Assembly (NCBI GenBank): GCA_964016885.1
Contig: OZ024761.1
Span: forward strand, 4,030,001-4,094,000
Source of the DNA: Eledone cirrhosa
Taxonomy: Eukaryota
Reading direction: 5' to 3'
Length of the DNA: 64,000 nt
The position numbers and the translations under genes were made by a program. Below, in pieces: positions 5,617 to 60,878 of the stretch (positions are counted from its first letter, which is position 1; each line of letters starts with the position of its first letter). The notes under the pieces are model-generated. The model had not been told where the DNA came from. It worked only from the letters and a program-made list of their open reading frames with translations, and searched no databases.

Positions 5617-5812
5617 CGATATTAATAAATGGAAACTATATTTATAAAACCATATTTATTTCATTATACATATTTCAGGGATACCAAATCAAAATATGGC
5701 ACGCCTTCATCAGACAAAATACAATATATATTTATATCAGTTATAAAATATTTACTTGTTGTATCCCAACAATTTTAAATAGAACTTTTACATATGTATA
5801 TATATATATATG

Positions 5813-5868
<56 letters not shown>

Positions 5869-5951
5869 CATATACATATATATATACATATATATATATA
5901 TACATATATATATACATATATATATATATATACATATATATACATATATAC

Positions 5952-5998
<47 letters not shown>

Positions 5999-6027
5999 CA
6001 TATACATATATATATATATACATATAC

Positions 6028-6073
<46 letters not shown>

Positions 6074-6158
6074 ATATACATACATACATATACATATATA
6101 TATATATATATACATATATACATATACATATATACATATACATATATATATATGCATA

Positions 6159-6218
<60 letters not shown>

Positions 6219-6333
6219 CATATACATATATATATATACATATATACATATACATATACATATATATATATATATATATACATATATACATATACATATA
6301 TATATATACATATATATATACATATATATATAC

Positions 6334-6364
<31 letters not shown>

Positions 6365-6516
6365 CATACATACATATACATATATATATATATATATATA
6401 CAATAAAGTATGTCCATAGAATCATTTGATAAGATATATGTACATATTTATATATTTATATATATATATATATATACATATATACATATACATATATATA
6501 CATATATATATATACA
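5568..6516. repeat. (TA)n/(TACA)n microsatellite with embedded insert
   Basis: Direct reading. Confidence 0.95.
5657..5721 (-). ncRNA. Minimal type I hammerhead-like motif, family A
   Basis: TATTTTGT-CTGATGA-stem II-GAAA-TATGTA-TA-ATGAAATA. Confidence 0.6.
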
Positions 6517-6610
6517 TGAAGTAATTCCGTCGGAAAAGTCCAGGAAAAAAGAGTGCTCTATGTAGGTTACAGAGCTTAATAGTTATGTAATAAACAACAT
6601 AAGATAATTA

Positions 6611-6671
6611 TTTCATTTACCAGTGGTTTCTTGAAAGCAAAAGAAATTTGCTTTCAGTCATCAGAATGAAA
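6611..6671 (-). ncRNA. Type I hammerhead-like motif, family B
   Basis: TTTCATT-CTGATGA-C-TGAAAGCAAA/TTTGCTTTCA-A-GAAA-CCACTGG-TA-AATGAAA; GUA site. Confidence 0.7.
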
Positions 6672-6815
6672 AAATCCTGGTGTATTTATTGACAGTGGAT
6701 TTTAAAAACAAAAATATAATCTATATGAAAGTGAGGCTGGAAAAGGAAGAAGGAAAGGAAACAGAATAAATATAAAAGTAGATAAATGCACACACACACA
6801 CACACACATATACAT

Positions 6816-6856
<41 letters not shown>

Positions 6857-7214
6857 GATTAAAGTTTAAGCAAAGAATCGCTGCTTTCACCCTTAACGTA
6901 ATTGTTTTTCACCGCTCCTATTAATGACGTATTATTCGTTTTTTCCCGTTCTTTGCCAGCGAACGTTACCACGAACCAACGTATCGTCTTCCTGTCTTCC
7001 TCCGGTTGCAACGTTTTTTGAAATATCCAGTTCTGCGTTTACAGATTGACTTTGTTAGTTTCAGAAGATCCCGTTAAGGGTGAAAGCAGCGATTCTTTGC
7101 TTAAACTTTAATCTGTTATTTTAATAAATATTTGCTCTACGGTTCTTATATATTTGATATATATTTTCCTTATCGAGCCCTCTTTGGATTTTATTCTTCA
7201 ATTTTATTATTATT

Positions 7215-7275
7215 ACTATACACATATACATATATATATACACATATATATATACATACACACTTATATACACAT

Positions 7276-7306
<31 letters not shown>

Positions 7307-7860: not shown

Positions 7861-8339
7861 AAAACAAAAGGGTGGAAGGGGTAAACAAATAGTTGGGAAT
7901 ACGACAAATAAATAAATAAATAAATAAATAGATAAAGGTATAAATGTTTATAGCTGATTCAGAGCACTCAACAAGTTCCTAGAGAAAATAATCATTAAAT
8001 CACTCTGTATGTAATTATGCATACAGATATATATAAAATTATATACACACACATATATATATATAACCACACATATACAGATATACACAACACATACATA
8101 CACACAGAAATAAATATCTATAAATAAAAAAGGTGGGCATGTAAAGGGTAAGGTAGAAAGTAGGGGGAATAAGGAAAATAAATAACATAGGAAAAAGTTT
8201 AAATATAAGGGGAGATAAGGGAGAAAAAGAATATAAGAGTACAGAAAGTGAGTTCAGAGAGTAATAAAAATCGTAGTGGATGTAAGGTGTAGAGGGCAGA
8301 TAAGAAGTTCAAGGTGGTTGAGTTATCGTAGGAATGTCA

Positions 8340-8712
8340 ATCCAGTTACAGATCAGATGTGATTTCAGGTGAGGACTACATCTTGGAGATCTCTGTCTTG
8401 GAGTTCAGGCAAGTTGAAGTGGCTTTCAGGTTTTGTAGAATCCTAAATTTTTCAGTGGTACATAAAGAACAATTCTTTGTGCCTCTTTGGTACTCCCTCA
8501 AATGGTCTAAAATAAACCAATCGATAGAGTACGGGATGTTTTTATCTTTGAATTCCCACACCATATTTGTGAGAGCCGTTGCTGTTCTTTTATCAGAGTG
8601 TTTAAAAGAAGCGACATGTGCATAAAACCTGGTTTTGAACCAACGTATTGTTCACTCCTGGCTGGCTGGTTGTTAATTAAAGGTGTCACTTTGGCCTCAT
8701 ATACAAAGGATA
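8340..8712 (-). pseudogene. Penelope-like element GIY-YIG endonuclease remnant
   Basis: VYEAKV..QYVGS, frameshift, RFYAHVASFKH..ALTNMVWEFKDKNIPYSIDW.IL..CSLCTTEKF.IL..LNSKTEI. Confidence 0.8.
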
Positions 8713-8739
8713 AATACATATGTATATATACATATCAAC

Positions 8740-8982
8740 AAACCCAATTCTCAGCCCATACATAACAACATACAATCTGTATTGCGAAACCGGCACATAG
8801 GAAAGCATCAAAATGTAACTGTCACTTACCGGATAAGTGCCCACTACAAAATAGATGCCTGGAGTCAAATATAGTGTACCTATATACTATAAATTCAGGC
8901 AACTTAGCATGGCACTACATAGGTTCTACGGCAGGGGAGTTCAAGAAAGGGTGGTACGTCCACAGACACTCTATAAATAACC
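8740..8982 (+). pseudogene. Second, divergent Penelope-like GIY-YIG remnant
   Basis: KCNCHLPDKCPLQNRCLESNIVYLYTI..HYIGSTAGEFKKGWYVHRHS. Confidence 0.8.
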
Positions 8983-9678
8983 ATGGGCATGCCTACAATG
9001 TCAGAAAACAGTACAGCTCCCGTGACTTTCAGAAACATTTTTTCACGCTCAGAGTTGCTGAAGCATGGAACAAACTACCTGCATCAGTTGTTAGCTGTCG
9101 AGACACTGCATCCTTTAAAACCTCCATGGAACAAACTACCTGCATCAGTTGTTAGCTGTCGAGACACTGCATCCTTTAAAACCTCCATGGAACAAACTAC
9201 CTGCATCAGTTGTTAGCTGTCGAGACACTGCATCCTTTAAAACCTCCATGGAACAAACTACCTGCATCAGTTGTTAGCTGTCGAGACACTGCATCCTTTA
9301 AAACCTCCATGGAACAAACTACCTGCATCAGTTGTTAGCTGTCGAGACACTGCATCCTTTAAAACCTCCATGGAACAAACTACCTGCATCAGTTGTTAGC
9401 TGTCGAGACACTGCATCCTTTAAAACCTCCATGGAACAAACTACCTGCATCAGTTGTTAGCTGTCGAGACACTGCATCCTTTAAAACCTCCATGCTTCCT
9501 GAAATTCACCAACACTATACCTGATATTCCCCTCCATACACACGCAATCATGTATTTCATAACTCATACACTGTTCACTTATCTGACATTTGTACATTAT
9601 TCTATGTATTATACATGCACCTTTGATGAGTTGTCGTGCACCTGAGCACTGTACACAATAATTTCATTATATTATTTT
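8983..9678 (+). mobile_element. CR1-type LINE 3' end with an internal 61-bp segment amplified 7 times (9064-9490)
   Basis: GHAYNVRK..KHFFTLRVAEAWNKLPASVVS..SFK typical of CR1 C-terminus; ATT-rich tail. Confidence 0.8.
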
Positions 9679-14458: not shown

Positions 14459-14671
14459 CATGTGTGTGTATATATAATATATATAAAGTATTTCCGTAGA
14501 AAAGGTAAAGGAAGGAAGAGTGCTCTATATATAGTACAGAGCTATTTAATTATGTAATAAACAACACAGTACAATTATTCCATTTACCAAAGGTTTCATG
14601 AAGACAGGTGACCTCAACAAAGGTCTCCAAAGTCGTTCATCAGAAAGGAAAATTTAAATTTAAATTAAATT

Positions 14672-14744
14672 TTCCTTTCTGATGAACGACTTTGGAGACC
14701 TTTGTTCAGGTCACCTGTCTTCGTGAAACCTTTGGTAAATGGAA
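14672..14744 (+). ncRNA. Type I hammerhead-like motif, family B2 (inverted copy about 14578-14650)
   Basis: TTCCTTT-CTGATGA-ACGA..TCGT-GAAA-CCTTTGG-TA-AATGGAA. Confidence 0.65.
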
Positions 14745-16004
14745 TAATTGTACTGTGTTGTTTATTACATAATATTATAAATATATATATATATATATAT
14801 ATTAATTTATTAAAATAAATAATTTATTAAAATAACAAATTGAAGTTTAAGCAAAGATCCTGTTAAGGGTGAAAGCAGCGATTCTTTGCTTAAACTTTAA
14901 TCTGTTATTTTAATAAATATTTGCTCTATGGTTTTTATATATAATTTTAGATATATATTTATCCTTATCGAGCCCTCTTCGGATTTTGGTCTTCACATTT
15001 ATTATTATTACTATATATATATATATATATATATATTAATATATATATATATGAATGTATGTCTCTTTATAAACTGCTATGTCAGCAGTACCCCTAAACC
15101 AACAATAACCACCTAGTGTTGAGGGTGCGTAACAAGAGTGGCTGCATATCTTCCCACCGCCCTCCCCCCCTCTAAGATTTCTCAGATTATACAAGAACCA
15201 GAACGCGTGTTATTTCAAGAAGTGTGTGGTTGTTGTTACACCCCAAAGCAACATTCCCCACCCCCTGCTGCCTACTGAACAAACCATATTTCCAGCCATG
15301 ACCCTCCTGTCTTCTCGTATAACTATTTACTGTGTATCACTGACTTCTTCCAAACTGTCTGAAGCTGCCCTTGTTTCTTTAATACTGCACCTTTTAAAAC
15401 TATTTACCTTCCATCTTCATTTCATGTAAGAACCTTTGTTATGTTATGTTCCAAATGCCAGATTAATAATAACTAAGTTATTAAATATCCACAATTTCTT
15501 TATTATTTTCAAAATTATTTGAAAACCATAGGCAGTGTCTTTTATTAGAAATATGGGAAGTGAAGGGTTAAGATTATGCTAAGGGGGTAACTTAGCCTTC
15601 AGCATGCTGTTGGTGACAAGAGAGTTATCTCCCCTTAATACAAGTTCAGTGTCCTGAAGGTTGAAAGAGATATGGCTGCTATTTCTAGTATTTGAGGCAA
15701 CCATATGATAGTCCCTTTCTGTTCATTGTATGTTGTGATGTGTTGTGACATGATGTGTGTGTACACTTGACCCCGGGGGGAGAGGGAGGAACATTGGGGT
15801 ACATGGTGTGCCTTAAGAGGACTTGTCAACAATAGTGTCACACTTGACTTCACTCCACTCAACACTACACTCCACTCGAGACAGCCCTAGACATATATTT
15901 ATATACAGAGGTCACAGAGGTCATGATCGAAATTTGTTTTGTTTTTCTTTTTTGTTTTGCTTTTGTTGTTTTTAATTTAAAATAATTATTTTTTCCTGAA
16001 TCAG

Positions 16005-18426: not shown

Positions 18427-19437
18427 CTGTAGAGAAACAGACAAAATATTACATTATATATATGTATTGTTATGCTTTAGGTTTCAACACATGTTTTCAT
18501 ATAAACAATCTTGCTAAACAAATTCAGAAACGACAGACAACCTTTTCCCCCACCCCGGAAAACCCCCCAGTTGATGGATGTGAATCCGAAATATATAGGG
18601 ACTATTAAATCTCTCCCAAGGTAACTCTCTCTTGTGTTGTTATTTTTATTTTTATCCTTTATACTCTTCCCTTCATTCTACACATCTCAAACATCTTATA
18701 CACACCACGCTTCTCAACGTACACCCACTTACATCTCTCTCTCCACCACCGGACCTTGTTACCCGGAGATTTACCCATTTGCATTGTCGAGGCTTCCAAA
18801 CGACTTAAAGATATTTACTTATTGTTCCACAATGCTTCAAGCAAACTTCAATACTCTCATATATATATATATATATATATATACGATATTAATAAATGGA
18901 AACTATATTTATAAAACCATATTTATTTCATTATACATATTTCAGGGATACCACATTAAATTATGGTATGCCTTCATCAGACAAAATACAATATATAACA
19001 GTTTTACAAATAGGTTTGACGTACCCTTTAAAATACAACCATTACTTTTGGAGGCTGTCTGGATAGTGATTTGTTTATATAATAAGTCATAGTGTTAAGC
19101 ACAATTAGAAAAAGACGGAGAGAAAGAAAGAGAAAAGAACAAAGAAAGAGATAGATAAAGATAGGAGGAAATATTATTATTTCCTCCTATCTTTATCTAT
19201 CTCTTTCTTTTCTCCATACTTTTCTCTCTCTCTCCGATATTTCTCCAGGTTTTCTTTCTCTTTTCTTTCTCTCTCTCTGTCTTTGTTCTTTTCTCTTTCT
19301 TTCTCTCCGTCTTTTTCTAATTGTGCTTAACACTATGACTTATTATATGAACAAATCACTATCCAGACAGCCTCCAAAAGTAATGGTTGTATTTTAAAGG
19401 GTACGTCAAAACCTATTTGTAAAACTGTTATATATTG

Positions 19438-19502
19438 TATTTTGTCTGATGAAGGCATACCATAATTTAATGTGGTATCCCTGAAATATGTATAATGAAA
19501 TA
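19438..19502 (+). ncRNA. Type I hammerhead-like motif, family A (inverted copy 18924-18988)
   Basis: TATTTTGT-CTGATGA-AGGCATACCA/TGGTATCCCT-GAAA-TATGTA-TA-ATGAAATA. Confidence 0.68.
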
Positions 19503-19627
19503 AATATGGTTTTATAAATATAGTTTCCATTTATTAATATCGTATATCTACTCCAAAAATTTGTCGAGTGCTTTATATCAGTTATAAAAATATTTACTTG
19601 TATCCCAACAATTTTAAATAGAACTTT

Positions 19628-19673
<46 letters not shown>

Positions 19674-19849
19674 CTTCAGGTTTGTTGGTTCACCACTGGA
19701 TAGAATTCCGTATGGTCAATCTTGGTGTAATATTGTGGAGAGTACTCAACGTAGTGCAGTTCACCCGTCTTCGTTTGTGTAGTTGGTGGTGCGAGTACAG
19801 AGTTAATTATCAATAAAAATATTTTACATATTCCTTTGTTATATTTCGA

Positions 19850-19907
19850 AAACCTGATGAAATCACCGGATTCAAATGGAACCCGGTCATTGAAATGATC
19901 ATAGTAT
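19850..19907 (+). ncRNA. Type I hammerhead-like motif, family C
   Basis: CTGATGA..ACCGG/CCGGT..GAAA, palindromic stem III ATGATCAT, AUA site; stem I weakened. Confidence 0.55.
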
Positions 19908-19969
19908 AATAAACCTTTCAAGGATTTACACCAGTCCAGCCTCCTGTTATTTTTATTGATATATAAATA

Positions 19970-20006
<37 letters not shown>

Positions 20007-20857
20007 CAAATGGAAACTATATTTATATAACCATATTTATTTTATTATACATATTTCAAGGGCCACCAAGGCAAATTATGGTGCGCTTTCATGGTGGCCC
20101 TTGAAATATGTGCGCATTGGTGGCCCTTGAAATATGTATAATAAAATAAATATGGTTTTATAAATATAGTTTCCATTTGTTAATATATTGTATTTTTACT
20201 CCACTAATCAGTTGAGTGCTTTATATCAGTTATAAAACTTTTTAAGCTTGTTGAATCCCAACAAATTAAGTATAACCTCTGCATATATATATATATATTT
20301 ATTTTGCAAGGGTTTTAATATGAAATCGTGTGTCAAAACAAATATTGTTATACTTGGGGAGGGTCATATTGTTGTAATAATATTGCCAGAAATAATAACA
20401 GAACACACTCATTGTTTGGTTGGTTTTTGCTTCTGTATCTTTTATATCTCCATAGTTAATTTATTTGGTAATCAATGTTTATCATTGATTGTATTTTTAA
20501 CAGTCAGTCAATGATAAACATTGATTGCCAAATAAATTAACTGTGGAGATATAAAAGATACAGAAGCAAAAACGAACCAAACAGTGAGTGTGTTCTGTTA
20601 TTATTTCTGGCAATATTATTACAACAATATGACCCTCCCCAAGTATAACGATATAAATAAATATATTTTATTTTACTATATATATAATATGTATCATTTG
20701 ATATTTAACATACTATTATATCATCTCTACCATCCCCTCGACCTTCTCAATGCCCCCCTGGGGTGGTGGCCCCCAATGTGAGAACCTCTGGTGTAGAGGA
20801 TAGATTCAACTAATTGTTATAATATAATCCATAATTTTAAATTAACTTTATATTTAA

Positions 20858-22142
20858 CCCTTTACCATTTACATTACTCTATATATACTATTGTATTTTT
20901 GTGGTAAAGACTTTACCTCACATAACATTTACATTACTCTATATATACTATTGTATTTTCACAGTAAAGGCTTTACCTCACATAATATCTCACATAACAT
21001 TTACATTACTCTATATATACTATTGTATTTTCACAGTAAAGGCTTTACCTCACATAATATCTCACATAACATTTACATTACTCTATATATACTATTCTAT
21101 TTTCACAGTAAAGGCTTTACCTCACATAATATCTCACATAACATTTACATTACTCTATATATACTATTCTATTTTCACAGTAAAGGCTTTACCTCACATA
21201 ATATCTCACATAACATTTACATTACTCTATATATACTATTGTATTTTCACAGTAAAGGCTTTACCTCACATAATATCTCACATAACATTTACATTACTCT
21301 ATATATACTATTGTATTTTCACAGTAAAGGCTTTACCTCACATAATATCTCACATAACATTTACATTACTCTATATATACTATTCTATTTTCACAGTAAA
21401 GGCTTTACCTCACATAATATCTCACATAACATTTACATTACTCTATATATACTATTCTATTTTCACAGTAAAGGCTTTACCTCACATAATATCTCACATA
21501 ACATTTACATTACTCTATATATACTATTGTATTTTCACAGTAAAGGCTTTACCTCACATAATATCTCACATAACATTTACATTACTCTATATATACTATT
21601 CTATTTTCACAGTAAAGGCTTTACCTCACATAATATCTCACATACCATTTACATTACTCTATATATACTATTGTATTTTCACAGTAAAGGCTTTACCTCA
21701 CATAATATCTCACATAACATTTACATTACTCTATATATACTATTGTATTTTCACAGTAAAGGCTTTACCTCACATAATATCTCACATAACATTTACATTA
21801 CTCTATATATACTATTCTATTTTCACAGTAAAGGCTTTACCTCACATAATATCTCACATACCATTTACATTACTCTATATATACTATTGTATTTTCACAG
21901 TAAAGGCTTTACCTCACATAATATCTCACATAACATTTACATTACTCTATATATACTATTGTATTTTTGTGGTAAAGACTTTACCTTACATAATATCTCA
22001 CATAATATCAAATCTATGAGATTTTGATATTTATTTTGAGAAAATTACCTTAACATCAGTATGAGTGGCCAGTTACAGCCGGTTTGAAGAGAAAGAGGTG
22101 AGAGAACTTTGGTCGGATATGGCTGGTTTAACTGCTAAAGGG
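20858..22142 (+). mobile_element. TTAA-CCC (piggyBac-like) non-autonomous element with internal 72-bp tandem array (about 16 units)
   Basis: Starts TTAACCCTTTACCA, ends TGCTAAAGGGCTAA; unit ACATTTACATTACTCTATATATACTATTGTATTTTCACAGTAAAGGCTTTACCTCACATAATATCTCACATA. Confidence 0.8.
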
Positions 22143-28596: not shown

Positions 28597-28633
<37 letters not shown>

Positions 28634-29185
28634 TTGGTGCTCTGAAATAGCGATATATATATGAATGTATATATATATATATTTTGCAATACACTGTATG
28701 CTTAATTAAAAGCATTTCGAAGACCTTACGCTGTTGTTTTAGAGTAGTGACAGACTCACTTACTTTAATTTTCAGCAAACAGGGGAGATAAAGCTGACAG
28801 GGCTCTGTTTCGCATTTATTGATGCTTATCAAAGCCAACTACTCCTCCTGTTTGTTGAAATCATGGATGTTTGGTTCTTATAGAATTCTAGTAATAATCA
28901 GGAACTGATTATACAGAGCGGTTGCCGGTCAAGCAGAAATTGAAAATTAGAATTGGTGCTCTGAAATAGCTATATATATATATGAATGTATATACAGTGT
29001 ATTTTGCAATACACTGTATGCTTAATTAAAAGCATTTCGAAGACCTTACGCTATTGTTTTAGATTAGTGACAGTCTCACTTACTTTACTTGACCAGCAAC
29101 CACTCTGTATAATCAGTTCCTGATTATTACTAGAATTCTATAAGAATCAAACATTCATGATTTTCAGCAAACAGGTGGAGTACTT

Positions 29186-29230
29186 AGCTTTGATAAGCAC
29201 CAAAAAGTGCGAAACAAAGCTCTGTCAGCT
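29186..29230 (+). ncRNA. Type I hammerhead-like motif with U3-A8 core, family D (inverted copy 28792-28836)
   Basis: AGCT-TTGATAA-GCAC/GTGC-GAAA-CAAAGCTCT-GTC-AGCT; other copy has GCAT/ATGC. Confidence 0.7.
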
Positions 29231-30277
29231 TTATTGCCCCTGTTTGCTGTAAATTAAAGTAAGTGAGATTGTCACTACTCTAAAACAATAGCGTAAGGTC
29301 TTCGAAATGCTTTTAATTAAGCATACAGTGTATTGAAAAATATATATATACATATTTATAATCTGAACACATTAAAAGTTTAAACAAACAATTTTTACTT
29401 TCGCCCTTTTTTGAGATCTTTGGAAACTCTTTATATCTATTGCATTATTCTCAGAACCACTACACCAGTCTTTAGATGAGTGCAGCTGGAACTACTGCCA
29501 CCCATTGATTTCACAGGATTTTTCTTTTTTTAGATGGCCGTTGACTCTTATGAGTTCTTCCGCCCTTTGTTAGGTTTTGCTGTTTGTGTGTCCAAAATCA
29601 CTGTGTCCAAAATCACGGTGTTCAAAATCACCCCCCTCACGAAGTAAACTTGGTGGGGTTGCAGGTTTAGTCGCCGACGACCTGACCATGCAACAGGTTG
29701 TACTAGGTTACAAGCAGACATTAAACGATGATATATACTTAAATGGGTGCTTAAAAATCATTAAATGAATAAACATTCAATACATGTGGGCAGGGTTTAA
29801 CATTCCTTAACTAAACAGTTTTTTTTTAAATAAAAAAAAGATTCAAGCCCAGAGTAAAGTTTGGTAGATAAATTGCATGTGATTTTTTGCACCTAATTTT
29901 TCCACAACAGCAGTGTCTACAAGGAGAAGACATTTGTCCAATGTGCCATGAAGACAGACACAAGGGTAGATGTCCAGAATTAGTAAACTACGACAGGTTT
30001 TGATCTTCTTAAGCTAAATTACCATATACACTTGAAAATAAGCCATCCCCCATTTATTTTATGTCTGAAAAAATCCAAGCCTCGTTTATAAGCCAAGGCA
30101 GCTTATGTTTAGATGTAACTCTTTAGTAAATATAAGCCTCCCCACCACCACCACCACCACCATTTTACCATCAATTCTTTGGTCACATTCCTCGGTTTAT
30201 ATTCAAGAATAGATGGTAAATGAAGAATGCAGAATGGATCTCAAGAGATGGAAAGAAATGTTTTTACAACCACTTAC

Positions 30278-34524: not shown

Positions 34525-34558
<34 letters not shown>

Positions 34559-34785: not shown

Positions 34786-34856
34786 TATTTTATCTGATGA
34801 GAACGGAAATATCATCCCATGATGATATTTGTTTTTGAAATGCGCATAATAAAATA
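34786..34856 (+). ncRNA. Type I hammerhead-like motif, family E (inverted copy 34589-34656)
   Basis: TATTTTAT-CTGATGA-..AAATATCATC/GATGATATTT..-GAAA, palindrome ATGCGCAT, A, ATAAAATA. Confidence 0.75.
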
Positions 34857-34983
34857 CTTGGAACTCTTTTAACCATCTTTTGATTTTATATTATTTATAC
34901 TCCAGTCCTATAAAGTGTTGAGTGCTACTTATCCGATATTTGCATTGCTTTATTGTACTACAATAAAACTCACCTCCTACATA

Positions 34984-35046: not shown

Positions 35047-35978
35047 GGGTGCTCTGAAAGTACAGTAGCTAGAGTCAGAACTGGTTGGAAAAAATTCAGA
35101 GAGCTTATACCACTATTAGCTGCTAAAGGGTTCTCCCTAAAAATGAAAGGCAGGTTGTATGATGCCTGCATACGAACAGCAATGTTGCATGGCAGTGAGA
35201 CCTGGGCATTGTGTGCAGAGGATATTCGCAGACTGGAGAGGAACGAAGCTTGCATGCTCCGCTGGATGTGTAACAGTAATATACGTGAACGGCAAAGCAT
35301 AAACGAACTAAGGAAAAAATTAGAAATAAGAGGGATCAGATGTTGTTTACTCGAGAGAAGGCTACGTTGGTATGGTCACGTGATGCGCATGAAAGTCGAT
35401 AGCTGTATAACAAAGTGCAGGGCAATAAAGATAGACGGTAACCACGGAATAAGCAGACCTAGAAAAACCTGGGACGAGCTGATAAACTCCGACCTCACAC
35501 ACTTACACCTCTCTAAGACAATGTCACTGGACCGAGACCTTTGGCGGTACTCAGTAACAGAGAAGACCTGCCTTACCTAAATACATAGTAAAACCTACTA
35601 CAGCCAGTAGGCATCTCTAACAAAATACACCCCGTCCCACCACCACCACCCCATCCACACCACCCCGTTCTATGTAAAGTTATGTTGGTGCAGCGCCATC
35701 CAGGCCGAAACAAATGAGATCGTGTAGGTGTCACGACAAAAAAACACACAGTCCACGCTGTAATGTGGCCGTGTAGGCAACACGGTAAAAACCTCCCAGA
35801 CCCACACTGTAAATGTGGTTGGTGTTAGGAAGGGCATCCAACTGTAGAAAACCTGCCAGACAGTCCTATGCGAGCAAGACAATCACTCTTGCCTCAAGTG
35901 GGAATACCCCCGTCCAAAACCATGCAAGCGTGGAACACGGACGTTAAACGTTGATGATGATGATGATGATGATGATGA
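35047..35978 (+). mobile_element. Short 5'-truncated RTE copy (ORF C-terminus, 3' UTR, GAT tail)
   Basis: Near-identical to about 4657-5567; starts and ends in TA tracts. Confidence 0.95.
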
Positions 35979-36004: not shown

Positions 36005-36390
36005 TCATCATCACCATTTTACGTCCATACTTCCACGCTAGCATGGGTTAGATGGTTTGTCCTGTTGTGGGCCGCGTCAGGTCAGGTGACCATATCTTGC
36101 TCATACAGGAACTGATTCTGGCTTGATTTCTACAGCTGGATGCCCTTCCTAACACCAACCTCATTTACAGTGTGGGCTGGATACTTTTTTGCCGTGACAC
36201 CTCCACGACCACTTTTCAGTGGGAGGGGAGTGGGGGCATATTGTCTATATGCTTCAGCTTGTTCCCGTGGGAAGTCGGGTCTTCTGTATTACTGCCTGGC
36301 GCCAGAGGTCCCAGTCCTGTGTCATCACCTTTGAGAGGTGCAACTGGGTAAGGTCAACTTTTATCACCTCATCCCAGGTCTTCTTGGGTG
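36005..36390 (-). mobile_element. Older RTE-related 3' fragment
   Basis: CATCAT tail, GGATGCCCTTCCTAACACCAACC 3' UTR motif, PKKTWDEVIK remnant. Confidence 0.7.
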
Positions 36391-36771
36391 TGCATAGAGT
36401 GCTTGATTCGGTACCAACACCAGTATTTCACTGTACTACCTACACTATACACACACACACATATATATATAGTAATAATAATAAATGTGAAGACTAAAAT
36501 CCAAAGAGGACTCGATAAGGACAAATATATATCAAATATATAAGAACCCTAGAGCAAATATTTATTAAAATAACAGATTAAAGTTTAAACAAAGAATCGC
36601 TTCTTTCACCCTTAACGGGATCTTCTGAAATATATATATATATCATCATGTTATTAGTAATTTAGTGTTAAAAGCGTGAAAAAATATATATTTCCACGAA
36701 AAAATCGTGGAAATATTTACAATTACTCTTTCTAGCTAGATTTCTACAGCTGGATGCCTTCCTAACACCAA

Positions 36772-39948: not shown

Positions 39949-40449
39949 TTTACCATTTACATTACTCTATATATACTATTGTATTTTCACAGTAAAGGCT
40001 TTATTTCACATAATATCTCACAACATTTACATTACTCTATATATACTATTGTATTTTCACAGTAAAGGCTTTACCTCACATAATATCTCACATAACATTT
40101 ACATTACTCTATATATACTATTGTATTTTCACAGTAAAGGCTTTATTTCACATAATATCTCACAACATTTACATTACTCTATATATACTATTGTATTTTC
40201 ACAGTAAAGGCTTTACCTCACATAATATCTCACATAACATTTACATTACTCTATATATACTATTGTATTTTCACAGTAAAGGCTTTATCTCACATATCTA
40301 ACACATTTACATTACTCAATATATACTATTGTATTTTCACAGTAAAGGTTTCATCTCACATAATATTGAATCTATGAGATTTTGATATTATTTATTTTGA
40401 GAACAATACCTTAACATCAGTATGAGTAACCAGTTTAAATGCTAAAGGG
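39949..40449 (+). mobile_element. Same 72-bp-satellite element, about 6 units
   Basis: Same unit and unique tail, ends GCTAAAGGGTTAA. Confidence 0.78.
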
Positions 40450-48190: not shown

Positions 48191-49734
48191 CCCTTTAGCA
48201 TTTAAACCACCATATCCGGCCATAATTCTCTCCACTCATACTGATGTTAAGGTATTGTTCTCAAAATAAATATCAAAATTTCATAGCTTCGATATTATGT
48301 AAGGTAAAGTCTTTACCATGAAAATATAATAGTAAATATAGAGTAATGTAAATGTTATGTGAGATATGTGAGGTAAAGCCTTTACTGTGAAAATACAATA
48401 GTATATATAGAGTAATGTAAATGTTATGTGAGATATTATGTGAGGTAAAACCTTTACTGTGAAAATACAATAGTATATATAGAGTAATGTAAATGTTATG
48501 TGAGGTAAAGCATTTACTGTGAAAATACAATAGTATATATAGAGTAATGTAAATGTTATGTGAGATATTATGTGAGGTAAAACCTTTACTGTGAAAATAC
48601 AATAGTATATATAGAGTAATGTAAATGTTATGTGAGGTAACGCCTTTACTGTGAAAATACAATAGTATATATAGAGTAATGTAAATGTTATGCGAGATAT
48701 ATTGTGAGGTAAAGCCTTTACTGTGAAAATACAATAGTATATATAGAGTAATGTAAATGTTATGTGAGATATTATGTGAGGTAACGCCTTTACTGTGAAA
48801 ATACAATAGTATATATAGAGTAATGTAAATGTTATGAGATATTATGTGAGGTAAAGCCTTTACTGTGAAAATACAATAGTATATATAGAGTAATGTAAAT
48901 GTTATGTGAGATATTATGTGAGGTAAATCCTTTACTGTGACAATACAATAGTATATATAGAGTAATGTAAATGTTATGTGAGATATTATGTGAGGTAAAG
49001 CCTTTACTGTGAAAATACAATAGTATATATAGAGTAATGTAAATGTTATGTGAGGTAACGCCTTTACTGTGAAAATACAATAGTATATATAGAGTAATGT
49101 AAATGTTATGTGAGATATTATGTGAGGTAAAGCCTTTACTGTGAAAATACAATAGTATATATAGAGTAATGTAAATGTTATGTGAGATATTATGTGAGGT
49201 AAAACCTTTACTGTGAAAATACAATAGTATATATAGAGTAATATTATATACAAGCCGAACTGGACTGGGAAAGGTCAACAGTTGACATGATAGTGATTTT
49301 GACGATTTTGATTTTGTATCAGTACTGTCGGTAATATATGTATATATATATATGTTTGTGAGTGGTGTGTGTGATTGTATGCATGAATGAGTGTTGGTAT
49401 GCGTGGTTGTGGTTTGTATGCATGAGTATTGGTGTGTGAGTCGTGTCAATAATTTTTTTTTTTTTTTCTTTTTTTTTTTTTTAATGACCATGCTGTAAAA
49501 TGGAGGGGTAGAGAGGGCCCTTGAGTCTAGTAAGACATCCTCTCTAGTGCTGGTGGCACAAATAAAAGCACCCAGTCCATGCTGTAAAGTGGCGCTGGTG
49601 TTAGGAAGGGCATCCAACCAGTGTATCAATGCCAAAAAGCTTATCAGCACAGCAACAAAACAGCATAATGTAAATGTTATGTTACTGTGAAAATACAACA
49701 GTAAATATAGAGTAATGTAAATGGTAAAGTGTTA
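48191..49734 (-). mobile_element. Same element, about 14 units, interrupted at about 49246-49665
   Basis: TTAACCCTTTAGCA at 48187; other end ATGGTAAAGTGTTAA near 49730. Confidence 0.72.
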
Positions 49735-50432: not shown

Positions 50433-50524
50433 CTGGATTGACAGGATTTGAACTAATAAATATGAAATTAAACATCAAAATAATATATATATAATATTCT
50501 TTATTATGGTTAAGTGATGCCTCG

Positions 50525-50565
50525 TTACTGTAGAGTTTCACCTGTCTATGAACAGGCTCATCAGG
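50525..50565 (-). ncRNA. Hammerhead-like core, family F, stem I truncated at inversion (degenerate plus copy 50571-50605)
   Basis: CTGATGA-GCCTGT/ACAGGT-GAAA-CTCTACAG-TA. Confidence 0.55.
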
Positions 50566-51102
50566 CACATCTGATGAGCCTTGTTGGGTAAAACTCCACA
50601 GTAACGAGACATCACTTGGCCATAATAAAGAATATTTAAACTAGTTTGGTATTGAGTGCTTATTCTCATGTCAATATCACATCATCATCATCACTGTTTA
50701 ATGTCTATTTTCCATGCTTGCATGGGTTAGACGGGTCATCCTCAAGTATGACCAGTTGACCGTGCCATACCTTGGACTGTGTTGGCTGGGATTTTATGGC
50801 TGCCCTTCCACCAACCACATTTACAGTGCGGAACTGGGTGACACCGTTGTGGGTGGGGCTGGCTAGTTGGTCACACCATACCCTGCTCACAGCAAAACTA
50901 TTTTGGGATCTGGATGGTCCCATTATGAGGGAGGTCTTGTCAGTTAGCCACACCATGCCTTATTTATAGTGGGGCTGGGTTTGAGCTGGGTTTTTACAGT
51001 TGCTGGATGCACTGCCAGCCAACCACATTTACAGTGTGGAACTGTTGAGAGAGAGGGAGGGAGGGAGGGCTGACCCTAGTTTTTACTTTTGTATTGCTGA
51101 CT

Positions 51103-53137: not shown

Positions 53138-53139
53138 TA

Positions 53140-54435
53140 CAGGGTGTGGACGATATTTGTTCGCAAGATTACTGTCTAGGAAAAAATAACACAGTAGTTT
53201 TATTTTTTAAGATATATTTATCAAACTTGGGTCAGTTTGTCTTCATGACTTGTTTTTTCGATCTCACTCGATAAACCCGCCATTGGCTTTGATAACGGCC
53301 TCAAGGCGGCCTCGGAACCGGCTACAGGCCTTCGTCACTGTCCCCCGATTTAAGCCCCTAAAGGCACTTGTGATCCTGGCCTTCAGATCGTCTTTCGTAT
53401 TGCAGTTAGATCTTTTGGTGTCTCGTTCCACTGTGCCCCACACAAAGAAGTCGAGGGGGTTGCAGTCAGGCGAGCTGTGAGGCCAGATGTCAGGTGAAGT
53501 GTGGTCGACGAAGTTCTCTGACAGCCAGGCTTGGGTCTTTTGGCTGGTATGGCAGGGCGCTGAGTATTGCTCCCACACGTACGGCTTACCTGCAGCTACC
53601 TGGTTGATCCAGGGCTTTACTACCTCGCTCAGAACGTGGATGTACCCATCAGTGTTTAGCTTGAGGCCCTCAGGGAAGAAGTGAGGTGGCATGACGTCAC
53701 CTTGACTGCTGACGACACCTAAGACCAATGTTGTCGCTGGAAACTTTGTCTGTATGACTCTGGGCACATCTTTGGATGAGACAGCGAGCCACCTGTTGTT
53801 CTGGGAGTTGATCTTCTGGTCTTGGCAGAAGTTTTTCTCGTCGGAGAAAAACTACAGCATGTCTGGCTCCAGTGGGTGTTTCAACTTGTTGATCAGCTTC
53901 TTTGCGTGCTTCAGTTGCTTTTCTTGACAGAAATTGTCCTTTCCTCATCTTGTATGAAACGTAGCGAATATCTTCATGTACCAGCAGCATAATGAGCTTT
54001 TTATCAACGCCTTTCTCCCTTGCAATGGCACGCATTGACTTGCTAGGTTCATTGTTGATGATATCCTGAACTTCAGCAACGAACTCGGGCGTTCTGCAGG
54101 CGTCAGATCGTCGATCATGTGTTTTCCTCTCTGATGTTGCTTCGTAGTCGAATCCTGAATCTTCCAATTCCTTTCTGACCTTTTCCACCATTCTCCTGCC
54201 GACGCTGAGAAAGTCTGAAATTTCTTTATTTGTCCTCCCGGCGCAAATTCCAAGAAGAACTCCGTGGCTCTTCCACAAATTTGGAGGTTCAAAATTATTT
54301 ATAATCAATTATTATGAAAATAAATAATGGAAATATAGTCACTGTTTTTATGAAGACAAGAGTGACAACGGAAGTAAAAAAAAATTGCATAAAATTAGCA
54401 GTTGAAAATTGCGAACAAATATCATCCACACCCTG
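53140..54435 (-). mobile_element. Tc1/mariner superfamily DD37D (maT-like) transposon, 1296 bp, inactive
   Basis: 27-bp TIRs CAGGGTGTGGAYGATATTTGTTCGCAA, TA on both sides; FSDEK, (D>Y)SAPCH, 37 residues to SPDCNPLD; frameshift near 53920. Confidence 0.92.
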
Positions 54436-54870
54436 TATATATATATATACATATATATATATGTAGGACGATAAATTTAAACAGGTCTAATTTATAAATT
54501 AAAAATGGTGGTTATATATATATATACACAGACACACACACATATACATTCAATATGACAATTTAAATTCATTCTTCAATTTCTACGTCCATTTCAATAC
54601 GGTTACAATGGTACATGCATATATAAGCAATTGGAAATAATTAATTATCAATTATTAACACTATACATAAAACCTATAACTGCATTTCTTCAGGAAAATA
54701 TGAGAAGGAACAAAGTTTACGAAGTTCAAACAGTCTTAAGACAGACTTCATGCAAAGCAAGCCATTAAATATAAAAAAAAACAACATATTTTGTCCATGG
54801 AGTTGTTAGACCATGTAAAGTTACAGGTTGAGGTACAAATCATGGTCTTTAGTATTTACAACATTATCAA

Positions 54871-55952
54871 CCCTTTAGCATTTAAACCAGCCATATCCGG
54901 CCAGAATTCTCTCACCTCTTGTTTATACTGGCTGTAACTGGCCACTCATACCTATATTAAGGCATTGTTATTGAAATAAAAAAACATCAAAATCTTGTAG
55001 ATTTGATATTATGTAAAATAATTATGTGAGGTAAAGCCTTTACTGTGAAAATACAATAGTATATATAGAGTAATGTAAATGTTATGTGAGATATTATGTG
55101 AGGTAAAGCCTTTACTTTGAAAATACAATAGTATATATAGAGTAATGTAAATGTTATGTGAGATATTATGTGAGGTAAAGCCTTTACTTTGAAAATACAA
55201 TAGTATATATAGAGTAATGTAAATGTTATGTGAGATATTATGTGAGGTAAAGCCTTTACTGTGAAAATACAATAGTATATATAGAGTAATGTAAATGTTA
55301 TGTGAGATATTATGTGAGGTAAAGCCTTTACTGTGAAAATACAATAGTATATATAGAGTAATGTAAATGGTATGTGAGATATTATGTGAGGTAAAGTCTT
55401 TACTGTGAAAATACAATAGTATATATAGAGTAATGTAAATGTTATGTGAGATATTATGTGAGGTAAAGCCTTTACTGTGACAATACAATAGTATATATAG
55501 AGTAATGTAAATGTTATGTGAGATATTATGTGAGGTAAAGCCTTTACTGTGAAAATACAATAGTATATATAGAGTAATGTAAATGTTATGTGAGATATTA
55601 TGTGAGGTAAAGCCTTTAATGTGAAATACAATAGTATATATAGAGTAATGTAAATGTTATGTGAGATATTATGTGAGGTAAAGCCTTTACTGTGAAAATA
55701 CAATAGTATATATAGAGTAATGTAAATGTTATGTGAGATATTATGTGAGGTAAAGTCTTTACTGTGAAAATACAATAGTATATATAGAGTAATGTAAATG
55801 TTATGTGAGATATTATGTGAGGTAAAGCCTTTACTGTGACAATACAATAGTATATATAGAGTAATGTAAATGTTATGTGAGATATTATGTGAGGTAAAGC
55901 CTTTACTGTGACAATACAATAGTATATATAGAGTAATGTAAATAGTAAAGGG
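54871..55952 (-). mobile_element. Same element, about 13 units
   Basis: CCCTTTAGCA ... TAAAGGGTTAA ends and same unit. Confidence 0.8.
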
Positions 55953-56598: not shown

Positions 56599-56752
56599 TA
56601 AGTTCACGTGGATTGGGGAACGGAAATGGTTGGGAAAGTGAGAAAAGAGCATCAGAAAACTCCATGTCCTCAATTTTATATGGAGCATCATTACTTTCTG
56701 TGGTGTTATGTCCCTGAAAGGACCATTCATAGAGATTATTCTGGGAGCTGCC
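56599..56752 (-). CDS. MLXIP: Mondo exon GSSQNNLYEW...FSDALFSLSQPFPFPNPREL
   Basis: CAG/GTAAGT, 154 nt, phase 0 to 1. Confidence 0.9.
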
Positions 56753-56927
56753 CTGGAACAGAGATAAACTCACATTAGATCAAAGGTTCATAAAACATCG
56801 GGGCCAGATTAACTCCTTTTCGGGCCGTAACAATTTAAAAGATTAGGGTGTATCCCTTACTCCCCCTACATATATAAATGCGGCATTTTTTTTTTATTGA
56901 GAATGACAAATACATTTAATTTGAATA

Positions 56928-57398
56928 AAATTGTGCCCCTTTCATCTATTGAAACCCCTAAAATATGTATATTTTAATTGTGCCCCTTTCATCCATTGAA
57001 ACCCCTAAAATATGTATATTTCAACTGAGCCCGTTTTATCTGTTGAAACCCCTAAAATATGTATATTTCAATTGTGACCCTTTCATCCATTGAAACCCCT
57101 AAAATATGTATATTTCAATTGTGCCCCTTTCTTCCATTGAAACCCCTAAAATATGTATATTTCAATTGTGCCCCTTTCATCCATTGAAACCCCTAAAATA
57201 TGTATATTTCAATTGTGCCCCTTTCATCCATTGAAACCCTTAAAATATGTATCTTTAAACTAAGCCTGTTTTATTTGTTGAAACCCCTAAAATATGTATA
57301 TTTCAATTGTGCCCCTTTCATCCATTGAAACCCCTAAAATATGTATATATCAACTGTGCCCCCTTTATCTGTTGAAACCTCTAAACATATGTATATTC
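56928..57398. repeat. 47-bp-class minisatellite, about 10 units
   Basis: AATTGTGCCCCTTTCATCCATTGAAACCCCTAAAATATGTATATTTC. Confidence 0.9.
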
Positions 57399-57507
57399 CA
57401 CTTCTTACTTAGACAAATCTTTCTCCCTTGATATATATTGATGGGGGGAGGAGGGGGGGGGGTAATTTGTCAAAGTGAAGGGTTGGGTTCATAGATCCCA
57501 ATAAATC

Positions 57508-59618
57508 CAGTACAGTACAGTATAGTATAGTATGGTATAGTATAGTATAGAATGGTACAGTATAGTATTGTATAGTATGGTACAGTATAGTACAGTATAG
57601 TACAGTATAGTATAGTATAGTATGGCACAGTATAGTACACTATAGTATACTATGGTATAGTATGGTATAGTATAGTGTAGTACAGTATAATACAGTACAG
57701 TACAGTATAGTACAGTATGGTATAGTATAGTATGGTATAGTATAGTATAGTACAGTGTAGTATAGTACAGTATATAACAGTATAGTATAGTATAGTACAT
57801 TGTAGTATAGTATAGTACAGTATAGTATAGTACATTATAGTATAGTACAGTATAGTATAGTACAGAATAGTATAGTACAGTATAGTGTAGTACATTATAG
57901 TATAGTACAGTATAGTACAGTAGAGTATAGTATAGTGTAGTATAGTACACTATAGTATAGTACAGTATAGTATAGTACAGTACAGTACAGTATAGTACAG
58001 TACAGTATAGTATATTATAGTACAGTATAGTATATTATAGTACTGCGTAGTATAGTATACTTACAGTATAGTATGGTATAGTATAGTATATTATATTATA
58101 GTACAGTATATTATAGTACAGTATGGTATAGTACAATACAGTGTAGTACAGTATAGTACAGTATAGTATAGTATATTATAGTACAGTATAGTACAGTATA
58201 TTATAGTACAGTATAGTATAGTAAGTACAGTATAGTATAGCACAGTATAGTACAGTACAGTATAGTATAGTACAGTACGGTATACTATAGTACAGTATAG
58301 TATACTAGAGTATAGTATAGTACAGTACGGTATAGTATATTATACTATGGTACAGTATAGTATAGTACAGTATAGTACGGTAAATTATAGTACAGTATAG
58401 TATAGTATAGTATAGTACACTATAGTATAGTACAGTATAGTATAGTACAGTGTAGTACAGTAAGTACAGTATAGTATAGCACAGTATAGTATAGTACAGT
58501 ATAGTATAGTACAGTACACTATAGCATAGTATATTATAGTACAGTATAGTACAGTTTAGTATGGTACAGTATAGTACAGTATATTATGGTGTAGTATAGT
58601 ACAGTGCAGTATAGTACAGTATAGTATAGTACAGTATAGTATAGTATAGTACAGTATATTACAGTATAGTATAGTACAATGTAGTATAGTATATTATAGT
58701 ACAGTATAGTATAGTACAGTACAGTACAGTGTAGTACAGTACAGTATAGTACAGTATAGTATGGTATAGTATTGTACAGTATAGTATAGTACAATATAGT
58801 ACAGTACAGTACAGTATAGCATAGTACGGTACGGTACAGTACAGTACAGTATAGTATAGTACAGTATAGTATCGTATGGTACAGTATAGTATAGTACAGT
58901 ATAGTACAATACGGTATAGTATATTATAGTATGGTACAGTATAGTACAGTATAGTATAGTACAGTATAGTATGGTACAGTATAGTATAATACAGTTTAGT
59001 CCAGTACAGTATAGTGTAGTATAGTATAGTATGGTACAGTATAGTATAGTATGGTACATTATAGTACAGTATAGTATGGTACAGTATGGTACAGTATAGT
59101 ATAGTATGGTATAGTATAGTATATTACAGTATAGACAGTATAGTATATTACAGTATAGTACAGTAGAGTATAGTACATTATAGTACAATAGAGTATAGTA
59201 CAATATAGTATAGTATAGTACACTACAGTATAGTATAATATAGTATAGTATAGTACATTATAGTATAGTACAGTACAGTATAGTACAGTACAGTATAGTA
59301 CTGTATAGTAGAGTATAGTAGAGTATAGTATAGTACAGTATAGTACAGTATAGTATAGTACAGTACAGTACAGTATATTATAGTATAGTATAGTACAGTA
59401 TAGTATAGTATAGTATAGTATATTATAGTATAGTCTAGTATAGTACAGTATGGTATAGTATATTATAGAATAGTATAGTACAGTATAGTACAGTATAGTA
59501 TAATATAGTATAGTACAGTACGGTATACTATAGCATAGTATAGTATAGTATTAGTACAGTATAGTATAGTACTGTACAGTATAGTATATTATATTATAGT
59601 ACAGTATAGTACAGTACA
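57508..59618. repeat. Pentanucleotide (TATAG/TACAG)n array, about 2.1 kb
   Basis: Direct reading. Confidence 0.97.
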
Positions 59619-59667
59619 TTGAACACCACCACTACAACTAATAACATCACCACCACCACCAACTTAC

Positions 59668-59793
59668 TTTAGATGTTGTAGAATTACGTCGTGCACGAGT
59701 GATTTGGTTCTTAGAAAACTTTCTCCAACTTTTATATTCTCCAGTAACTGATTCCAGCCTTCGTTTCCAGTATTTCCCTTCCATAACAACTGC
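59668..59793 (-). CDS. MLXIP: Mondo exon, glucose-sensing MCR region: AVVMEGKYWKRRLESVTGEYKSWRKFSKNQITRARRNSTTSK
   Basis: CAG acceptor, GTAAGT donor, 126 nt; resembles ChREBP AVVLEGNYWKRRIE..EY..WR. Confidence 0.93.
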
Positions 59794-59852
59794 CTGTTTA
59801 GAAATATAATATATAGCAAGATATATATATACATCTAATGTATAAATATAAT

Positions 59853-59891
<39 letters not shown>

Positions 59892-60194
59892 GTTTAATAT
59901 GTGTTAGTTGTTTACCGACACCTCAGTATGCAGGTTGGAGCACTCAATGCAGTACGCAGGTTGGTTTGTTTACTACGGAGTAATGTAAAATAATATGTGT
60001 AAGTCAAACATGTTAAAATTGGCTTCGTTTATTCTAATTCCCTGCTATATATATTTCAGTGACAGCCATGACAGATATGATTCCAGTTCCTTTGAGGACT
60101 AACACCACACCCAGGAGCTGGACATATCAATGAATTAACAGGGTAGGACACATTACAACAGTATGTTTACCTGTTTTTTCTACATTAATTCTTA

Positions 60195-60247
60195 CTGCCT
60201 GACGACGTCACAGCCAATAATGGCTGTCACTGAAATATATATAACAG
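60195..60247 (+). ncRNA. Type I hammerhead-like motif, family G
   Basis: CTGC-CTGACGA-..ACAGCCA/TGGCTGT..-GAAA, palindrome ATATATAT, A, ACAG (GCAG in the inverted partial copy). Confidence 0.65.
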
Positions 60248-60296
60248 CGAATTAGAATAAACGAAGCTAACATTAACATGTTTGACTTACAAATAT

Positions 60297-60348
<52 letters not shown>

Positions 60349-60598
60349 ACAGGAGGCTGGACTGGTGTAATTCCTTAAAGGTTTATTATACTATGAACAT
60401 TTCAATGACCGGGTTCAGTATGAATCCGGTGACATCATCAGGTATTCAAAATTAAACAAAGGAATATAATCCATGGGGCTGAAGAGGCAGAGAGACAAGA
60501 AGGCGGCCGACCGAACTAGAAACTGCTAAATGTGTGGCCGCCTTCTTGTCTCTCTGCCGCTTCAGCCCCATGGATTATATTCCTTTGTTAAATTTTGA

Positions 60599-60655
60599 AT
60601 ACCTGATGATGTCACCGGATTCATCTGAACCCGGTCATTGAAATGTTCATAGTAT
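60599..60655 (+). ncRNA. Type I hammerhead-like motif, family C (inverted copy 60388-60445)
   Basis: ATAC-CTGATGA-..ACCGG/CCGGT..-GAAA-TGTTCA-TA-GTAT. Confidence 0.68.
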
Positions 60656-60878
60656 AATAAACCTTTCAGGAATTACAACAGTCCAGCCTCCTGTTATCTT
60701 ATAATAATTAATTCCGTACTCGCACCACCAACAACACAAACGAAGATGGATGAGTTGTATTATGTCGAGTGCTCTCCCTACTATTACATCAAGGTTGACC
60801 ATACGGAATGACCAGTTCTATCCAGTGGTGAACCAACAAACCTAAATGTATATATATATATATATATGTACATACATA

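Follow-up and report, generated by a model that had tools for sequence, protein, structure and literature searches.

The stretch of Eledone cirrhosa DNA considered here (assembly GCA_964016885.1, contig OZ024761.1, positions 4,030,001 to 4,094,000 of the forward strand; hereafter the window, 64,000 nucleotides in full) is repeat-rich eukaryotic DNA that raises a simple question: which mobile elements have left so many type I hammerhead ribozyme folds in its (TA)n tracts, and by what route did they arrive there? An earlier sequence-only reading had proposed Penelope-like element (PLE) terminal repeats or retrozyme-like non-autonomous elements. Our results indicate that the hammerheads of the window are real as folds and that the inserts carrying them very probably descend from the Hydra clade of PLEs. 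Taken as a whole, the reading that these inserts are 3′ ends of Hydra-clade PLEs whose reverse transcription starts beside two copies of a tail hairpin has, in our estimate, a probability of about three in four.

We searched the window with a strict type I hammerhead descriptor, using 60 local dinucleotide shuffles of the 64 kb as a control. The descriptor returned 12 matches against a shuffle mean of 0.3 (maximum 2), and 9 against 0.03 when a stem I of at least 3 bp was added, which is the clear excess over shuffled sequence that the sequence-only reading had named as a check. A relaxed scan gave 14 matches at a score of at least 8 against 0.3 in 40 shuffles (maximum 2), and 18 against 3.75 without a score cut. 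Scans and manual inspection together led to 16 curated cores, one degenerate core at 50571(+) that has lost G12, and several 3′ halves, distributed over 14 inserts that sum to approximately 5.0 kb. These numbers agree with the approximately 15 cores, inverted copies included, and with the very high density that had been announced; a core was found at all 10 loci cited earlier, together with the palindromic stem III sequences and the AUA, GUA and GUC triplets named for them. With approximate bounds, 7.9% of the window consists of PLE-derived inserts that Rfam and Pfam leave unflagged.

Among the 16 curated cores, CUGANGA occurs in 13, UUGAUAA in the two of family D and CAGAAGA in one of family H, and all except the latter (H1, which bears U4A) combine CUGANGA or its U3-A8 covariant with GAAA and NUH. 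Stem I is complementary as described in 11 cores and imperfect in the other five (B2L, B2R, C1, F and G). When one core was taken from each of the eight families, 65 of 72 stem cells were paired, with several pair types per column; shuffled 3′ partners gave a mean of 34.8 paired cells and 0 of 20000 shuffles reached 65. Along with four matched double changes in family D reads (see below), this supplies the stem covariation asked for earlier, and the cores show the three covarying helices of a type I hammerhead, stem I being open. Helix III spans 8-17 nt and is self-complementary at 6/9 to 8/8 positions. Because helix III is present, the cores fall outside the min-HHR class, which has no helix III or loop 3 (Cervera 2014), and are not “minimal” in the published sense, as they had been called. 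The expected number of about eight families proved right by a different route, as the ten loci cited reduce to seven families (5620 with 18880, 6520 with 14490, and 19680 with 60345) and the eighth, H (6855, 14803 and 36471), had been overlooked. Nor are the families unrelated: one tail motif recurs in all eight, and in A, C, E and G the triplet is AUA and stem II bears a C.Y mismatch at its fourth position.

It is very improbable that these folds arose by chance from AT-rich inverted repeats, or that they survive as inert relics, their palindromes maintained by quasi-palindrome correction in DNA. Some observations fit such an origin: the Rfam scan of the window gave no hammerhead at gathering score and only two sub-threshold HH9 matches, the best at 29173-29248 (25.6 bits, E 0.045), its other returns being inverted repeats that matched families of microRNA type; stems are broken in several copies; family H carries U4A; and template switching can repair short palindromes. 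Chance folding is at odds with the excess over shuffles, with the covariation of family D, which extends to stem II around a variable loop, and with the recurrence of the same fold at the same place in 26 of 34 clusters of Hydra loci from metagenomes, in those 26 never in antisense. The ribozymes were likely active in the parent elements, with self-cleavage predicted at NUH.

Elements of the Hydra clade are described as having a C-terminal GIY-YIG endonuclease with a CxCX5C linker and CxxC near E/N, a (TA)n target, canonical hammerheads close to the 3′ end, in which an extra nucleotide pair often precedes stem II, and inverted truncated copies with a tail on one end (PMC8557442). In the window, judged by eye, 26 of 28 insert ends adjoin TA-type runs. 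Inverted pairs account for 12 of the 14 inserts, all 12 being 5′-truncated with the tail on one arm only, and the other two are single tailed arms. The canonical sense hammerhead lies near the 3′ end, as it does in the 26 metagenome clusters. The PLE terminal repeats targeted to (TA)n of the sequence-only reading are thereby supported, and are narrowed to the Hydra clade by these traits together with GIY-YIG fragments and the tail hairpin. We consider it hardly likely that the parents belonged to another PLE clade such as Neptune or Naiad: Naiad_Obim and Naiad_Ovul do target (TA)n and Neptune has a microsatellite bias, but Naiads are without canonical hammerheads, and the tail hairpin matches loci with Hydra-type endonucleases and, by eye, three of six published Hydra consensuses exactly.

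Two different Hydra-type endonuclease fragments lie in the window. The one in frame at 8379-8651(−) carries CxxC..E..N and, used as a query, recovered 2333 proteins at E≤0.001, the first Atlas match being a GIY-YIG cluster (0.96); the one at 8760-8981(+) carries CxCX5C. The CxH is decayed, and neither fragment is joined to a hammerhead-bearing insert. The open reading frame (ORF) copy at 7862-8740 ends in a tail whose likeness to that of A2, beyond the motif, was reached by 2 of 2000 shuffles. Telomerase-like RTs of the Hydra clade are marked by DKT and RWK motifs; a homolog of the fragment, P0095, has DKT, TWK and YRDD and resembles Hydra-1_Ajap by eye. Six homolog clusters bore no name. Pfam matched neither a reverse transcriptase (RT) nor a GIY-YIG family in the endonuclease fragment and six homologs, a PDB search with P0095 gave no RT or GIY-YIG match, and a word-based search for homologs of the fragment among longer proteins was empty. 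The long RT ORFs at 3480-5186 and 32251-34074 were rejected as PLE candidates, being of the long interspersed element (LINE) type with AP endonuclease and PHD.

What links the inserts to each other is a tail hairpin with the consensus RCUC-Y..R-UH-GAGY-RCU, which includes a bulge. The GAGYVCY motif is present in the tails of all eight families and of the ORF copy (0.22 expected), and the full hairpin with an upstream RCTC in 6 of these 9 (0.03 expected; 0 in antisense). The motif was defined from the window before being tested there, and a loose hairpin pattern is not significantly enriched window-wide (17 against a mean of 9.0, maximum 18), only its position being enriched; we therefore tested it in other genomes. 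A scan of metagenomes with Hydra-type endonucleases provided 80 loci, the best of 396; 23 with less than 350 nt downstream were dropped and the remaining 57 were grouped into 34 clusters, one member each being picked with preference for hammerhead bearers. Because the clusters are kin, the counts that follow are not independent events. A sense hammerhead was found downstream of the endonuclease in 26 clusters, and 21 of these carry the hairpin 52-92 nt past the cleavage site (0.26 expected; 3 in antisense). A second hairpin follows 55-68 nt later in 9 of the 26, with an ATG 12-24 nt further that opens a Hydra-type N-terminus in 9/9. These nine tandem loci (L013, L018, L020, L022, L029, L030, L041, L049 and L073), which hold a complete hammerhead, the twin hairpins and the next ATG, have the same order at the junction: stop, 3′ untranslated region (UTR), hammerhead, about 40-57 nt, hairpin 1, about 60 nt, hairpin 2, 12-24 nt, ATG. 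The inner pair beyond a 2-nt U-led bulge is formed in 30/30 hairpins (C-G in 19, T-A in 11), as against 0/30 with a 0- or 1-nt bulge. In six published Hydra consensuses, inspected by eye, the exact motif is present in three, once twice before the ATG, variants are present in one, and it is absent from two. The twin tail hairpins are visible in published consensuses; the word “hairpin” is absent from the main text of PMC8557442, and we did not find the tail hairpin in print, where subscription papers, Repbase notes and some supplements may describe it.

The position of insertion ends points to a role for this hairpin. In 7 of 12 one-hairpin loci a microsatellite is reached 39-49 nt past motif 1, where hairpin 2 begins in tandem loci (42-54), and in 3 of 5 loci with no hairpin (TA)n is reached at 39, 44 and 56 nt past the cleavage site, where hairpin 1 begins (36-72). 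Related insertions thus stop immediately 5′ of either hairpin 1 or hairpin 2, and in the window each of the 12 inverted pairs combines an arm that stops short of hairpin 1 with an arm that has it as the tail. We find it rather probable that the hairpins set two start sites of reverse transcription. For the PLE Poseidon, AT-rich DNA is reported to be nicked on both strands; reverse transcription begins at a pair of internal sites that flank the tail and depends on RNA lying 3′ of the RT start (PMC11167929). Carried over to Hydra by inference, this mechanism would have a TA tract nicked on both strands by the Hydra RT-endonuclease and one cDNA started from each of two sites within the RNA, immediately 5′ of the respective hairpin, with the protein, perhaps as a dimer, docked on the two hairpins. 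Early termination of both cDNAs and their joining head to head would give the one-tailed inverted pairs. With the ribozyme so close to the end, even very short copies would keep it, 5′ truncation sparing it, which would account for the high density of 16 cores in 64 kb. The ribozymes would have been selected in parent elements, where they may cleave tandem transcripts by pairing up as dimers via the palindromic helix III. Read-through transcription of an inverted pair would yield RNA that folds back into one long hairpin, which would leave most genomic copies silent.

The hairpin could instead act on DNA, where the near-palindrome GAGYRCTC might assist endonuclease recognition or resolution, or it could regulate transcription or translation from the 5′ UTR; insertion ends would then lie next to it for no other reason than that the AT-rich stretches there pair with the TA primer. 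The PLE tail has been ascribed to endonuclease-mediated resolution (Craig et al., PMC8557442), the Drosophila virilis tail is described as needed for recognition of DNA by the endonuclease (Frangieh et al., PMC11167929), hairpin 2 sits 12-24 nt before the ATG, and the insertion ends are AT-rich and merge with the TA run. We nevertheless regard this as unlikely: the one-sided 2-nt bulge with its covarying inner pair, and the choice between ACTC..GAGT and GCTC..GAGC, suggest a single-stranded fold; the hairpin is strand-specific (21 sense against 3 antisense); and end sites adjoin both hairpin copies, not just the one next to the ATG.

Family D offers a view of the fold in reads and contigs. Over 28760-29095 we compared 2759 and 2470 contigs (X1 and X2, from one sample) and 5527 and 4271 restriction site-associated DNA (RAD) reads (X5 and X6). 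At 28800-28824, 10 variants are listed; two fall in loop 2 and eight make up four double changes, paired by matched but unphased frequencies (X5 and X6 pooled). In stem II, C-G>U-A is seen as 665/1625 with 639/1601 (41% and 40%) and U-A>C-G as 894/1631 with 900/1612 (55% and 56%); in helix III, G-C>A-U is seen as 481/1774 with 516/1808 (27% and 29%), and A>G in 605/1772 is matched by a kept C in 621/1803 (34% and 34%). Within a single molecule the last pair would have to close a loop of 2 nt, so that it could form only between two molecules, as the dimer model predicts. No variant among those listed affects the U3-A8 core. Hot read ends at 28767, 28884, 28941 and 29024 were rejected as biological ends and attributed to RAD cut sites because they coincide with TTAA or GAATTC (28941 via a common variant); read joints that go back 320 nt were also rejected, as an artefact of the permuted reference; the reads are cut at 28963-28997, and read depth over family D is no measure of copy number.

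The sequence-only reading had left room for retrozyme-like elements, and family D is the one family for which this is supported. Its unit of 319 nt (34% GC, no ORF, a type I hammerhead) has the size and GC content of non-LTR retrozymes, with about 1.45 units in the window where at least two tandem units, each with a hammerhead, define that class. Motif 1 is followed by GCTC at +42, by a decayed second motif and, 17 nt later, by an ATG, a layout with the spacing of the Hydra 5′ UTR that runs directly into stem I of the ribozyme. Because it closes on itself at about 320 nt and couples this layout directly to the ribozyme, family D is likely, judging from its sequence, an internally deleted, non-autonomous, retrozyme-like derivative that would have been moved by the same Hydra machinery. 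We are doubtful that most or all eight families are short retrozyme-type units that spread via circular RNA, a view that is compatible, family by family, with a Hydra origin. It draws on the same end-to-tail junction being seen twice in family D with a period of about 320 nt, on the folding of this unit (z −4.2, partly through AU ends), on 6 of 16 listed contig pieces (10-13 differences) that run from the upstream part into the tail motif, and on the lack of any arm in families A-H that reaches an ORF. However, those pieces cross the junction by 15-17 nt, under the 31-nt bridging rule; the arms that extend furthest (A2, with about 270 nt upstream of its core) run into a pyrimidine-rich, UTR-like stretch and do not return to the tail; and an ORF-bearing copy with an A-like tail is present in the window.

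To the post hoc definition of the motif, the choice and kinship of the clusters and the unphased family D frequencies must be added several observations that weigh against a Hydra origin with two hairpin-borne starts. No hammerhead was found in the ORF copy at 7862-8740, which has a microsatellite at 8031-8100, and none of the hammerhead-bearing inserts is physically joined to an ORF within the window; the ORF copy being without a hammerhead and linked by tail likeness, the connection from ribozyme families to an ORF is indirect. This likeness is weaker for A3 (49 of 2000 shuffles) and absent for E (1082) and C2 (1206), and no PLE RT sequence was found within the window. In family H, both copies that keep the core, 7062(+) and 36629(−), have U4A (CAGAAGA), with a 5-bp helix III that is stable as a monomer (−3.6 kcal/mol), and this family is possibly a variant or dead ribozyme. 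The inner pair holds in 8 of 11 hairpins of the window, a two-pair score that 147 of 5000 shuffles reached, and the tail past the motif is of uneven length, rising from 14 nt in D and 27 in F through 40-43 in B and H and 57-80 in A, C, E and G to 108 in the ORF copy. In the metagenomes, no microsatellite junction is seen in 4 of 12 one-hairpin loci or in 2 of 5 loci with no hairpin, a further one-hairpin locus has it at 160 nt, and L013 contains a TA run internally. RAD sampling of family D was uneven, and palindrome correction of DNA could mimic its helix III result. Finally, Poseidon insertion in vitro is reported not to need hammerhead cleavage (PMC11167929), and 8 of 9 frog retrozyme dimers failed to cleave, according to the literature.

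Several of the traits emphasized at first are already published, and novelty had been overrated: Hydra hammerheads in (TA)n, opposite-strand pairs, within-genome diversity and the U3-A8 core are all on record. A literature search for C3U/G8A was empty, though the U3-A8 variant is already described in Schistosoma (PMC4209133) and is not claimed as new for that reason. The PLE hammerheads of that report resemble ours in their long helix II, short stem I, palindromic helix III, predicted dimers, opposite-strand pairs and great within-genome diversity; unlike them, the window has a helix III of 8-17 nt, the C.Y mismatch of families A, C, E and G, and the U4A of family H with its stable helix. Compared with the Hydra clade of PMC8557442, in which Hydra-1_Obim of Octopus bimaculoides is the single published Octopus Hydra family and is one base apart from family B in helix III, the window holds eight diverged families in 64 kb, tails that mostly exceed 30-40 bp, and a non-autonomous derivative. 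Family D shares with non-LTR retrozymes (PMC7229834; bioRxiv 10.64898/2026.07.22.740005) its length, GC content, lack of an ORF, partial tandem, 4-bp stem II, G10.1-C11.1 and long stem I, and departs from them, as described there, by its U3-A8 core, Hydra 5′ UTR remnants, PLE-type inverted and tailed (TA)n integration and incomplete tandem. Poseidon PAc of Anolis is similar in its two-strand nicking of AT-rich DNA, its two internal RT starts flanking the tail and its required 3′ RNA; its starts lie in an AC-rich stem-loop inside the ORF and lack homology with the target (PMC11167929), whereas the Hydra ends are AT-rich and upstream of the ATG, each before one copy of a conserved hairpin. In O. 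vulgaris, 31 recently active Penelope-like families are reported (PMC13282606), and ribozymes go unmentioned in the main text of that paper and of PMC8967140. The ribozymes of the window are ordinary for the Hydra clade; the additions are the twin hairpin and family D.

Table 1. PLE-derived features of the window. Families were grouped by self-alignment of the window, and insert bounds are approximate.
Feature	Positions	Strand	Description
A1 insert, family A	5617-5789	−	Hammerhead arm on −; C3 at 5713; predicted cleavage after 5665
A1 second piece	5731-5789	+	Tail only, joined to the hammerhead arm
B1 insert, family B	6518-6788	−	Single arm; hammerhead C3 at 6664; tail hairpin with GAGCACT at 6558
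H1 insert, family H	6855-7217	+	CAGAAGA core (U4A) at 7062; 5-bp helix III; tail hairpin at 7175
H1 inverted arm	6855-6898		Tail-less
Hydra-type PLE 3′ end	7862-8740	−	Frameshifted GIY-YIG C-terminus (in frame 8379-8651); pyrimidine-rich 3′ UTR
Tail of the ORF copy 7862-8740	7969	−	GAGTGCT; resembles family A tail
Second, different Hydra-type endonuclease fragment	8760-8981	+	CxCX5C linker; IVY..YIG
B2 inverted pair, family B	14486-14780	both	Cores 14643 (−, tail arm) and 14679 (+, tail-less)
H2 inverted pair, family H	14803-15011	both	3′ half of core only; tail on + arm
A2 inverted pair, family A	18884-19630	both	Cores 18980 (−, tail-less) and 19446 (+, tail hairpin at 19566)
C1 inverted pair, family C	19671-19958	both	Core 19854 (+, tail-less); tail piece on −, GAGTACT at 19747
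A3 inverted pair, family A variant	20002-20283	both	3′ core halves; tail on + arm, motif 20214
Family D insert	28629-29354	both	About 1.45 head-to-tail units of about 320 nt on −, plus tail-less inverted arm
Family D unit	28986-28668	−	Tail motif 28961; second GCTC 42 nt later; ATG 28864; U3-A8 core 28832
Family D inverted arm core	29190	+	Tail-less arm
Family E inverted pair	34559-34980	both	Cores 34648 (−, tail-less) and 34794 (+, tail motif at 34920)
H3 insert, family H	36471-36630	−	Single arm truncated at core (CAGAAGA); tail hairpin 36513
Family F inverted pair	50487-50680	both	Core 50564 (−, stem I cut by inversion); degenerate core 50571 (+)
Family F tail motif	50654		5′ arm of hairpin missing
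Family G inverted pair	59889-60301	both	Core 60199 (+, tail-less); 3′ core half and tail on −, motif 59945
C2 inverted pair, family C	60344-60846	both	Cores 60441 (−, tail-less) and 60603 (+, tail motif at 60767)

Other repeats surround these inserts, among them SINEs of octopus-like appearance. A 313-nt inverted pair (94%) between TA runs at 20342-20654 has neither a hammerhead core nor a tail motif and is possibly a ribozyme-less PLE such as Naiad, and a lone tail-like piece at 36390-36450 (GAGTGCT at 36397), also without a hammerhead, lies between LINE sequence and a CA/TA run. Adjoining the second Hydra endonuclease fragment, 9064-9494 consists of seven exact 61-bp tandem copies of a unit that we take to be the 3′ end of a CR1-type LINE ORF. 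Three LINE copies, 2114-5551(+), 31749-34525(−) and 35047-35951(+), with AP endonuclease, RT, a PHD finger after the RT and a (TGA)n end, are 87-95% alike, their homologs in other genomes reaching 50-67%. Inverted terminal repeats of about 27 bp at 53140-54436 enclose a decayed transposase-like region on the − strand, presumably of Tc1/mariner type, two ORFs of which gave no Pfam match. A 70-72-bp minisatellite family recurs in both orientations at 20917-22005, 39954-40366, 48291-49242 and 55009-55943 with common flanks of 45-145 bp, which suggests an array carried by a mobile element.

The PLE tail raises the question of what specifies the two start sites behind it, and the enzyme that moves animal retrozymes has so far been argued mostly from co-occurrence and trees. 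A conserved, covarying and twice-repeated hairpin beside both end sites offers the existing in vitro assay a defined target for mutation, and hammerhead and hairpin together make a usable classifier for PLE-derived sequence. We tentatively suggest, at slightly less than even odds, that the twin hairpin is the predicted docking site of a dimeric Hydra RT-endonuclease, fixing both starts of reverse transcription, and that family D, in which the 5′ UTR layout of Hydra and the hallmarks of Hydra integration are preserved, is a circular-RNA retrozyme, having retained the hairpin signal so as to hijack the Hydra enzyme. If true, the twin hairpin would explain both the PLE tail and the one-tailed inverted insertions, and family D would connect an animal retrozyme directly, by sequence, with its autonomous partner.

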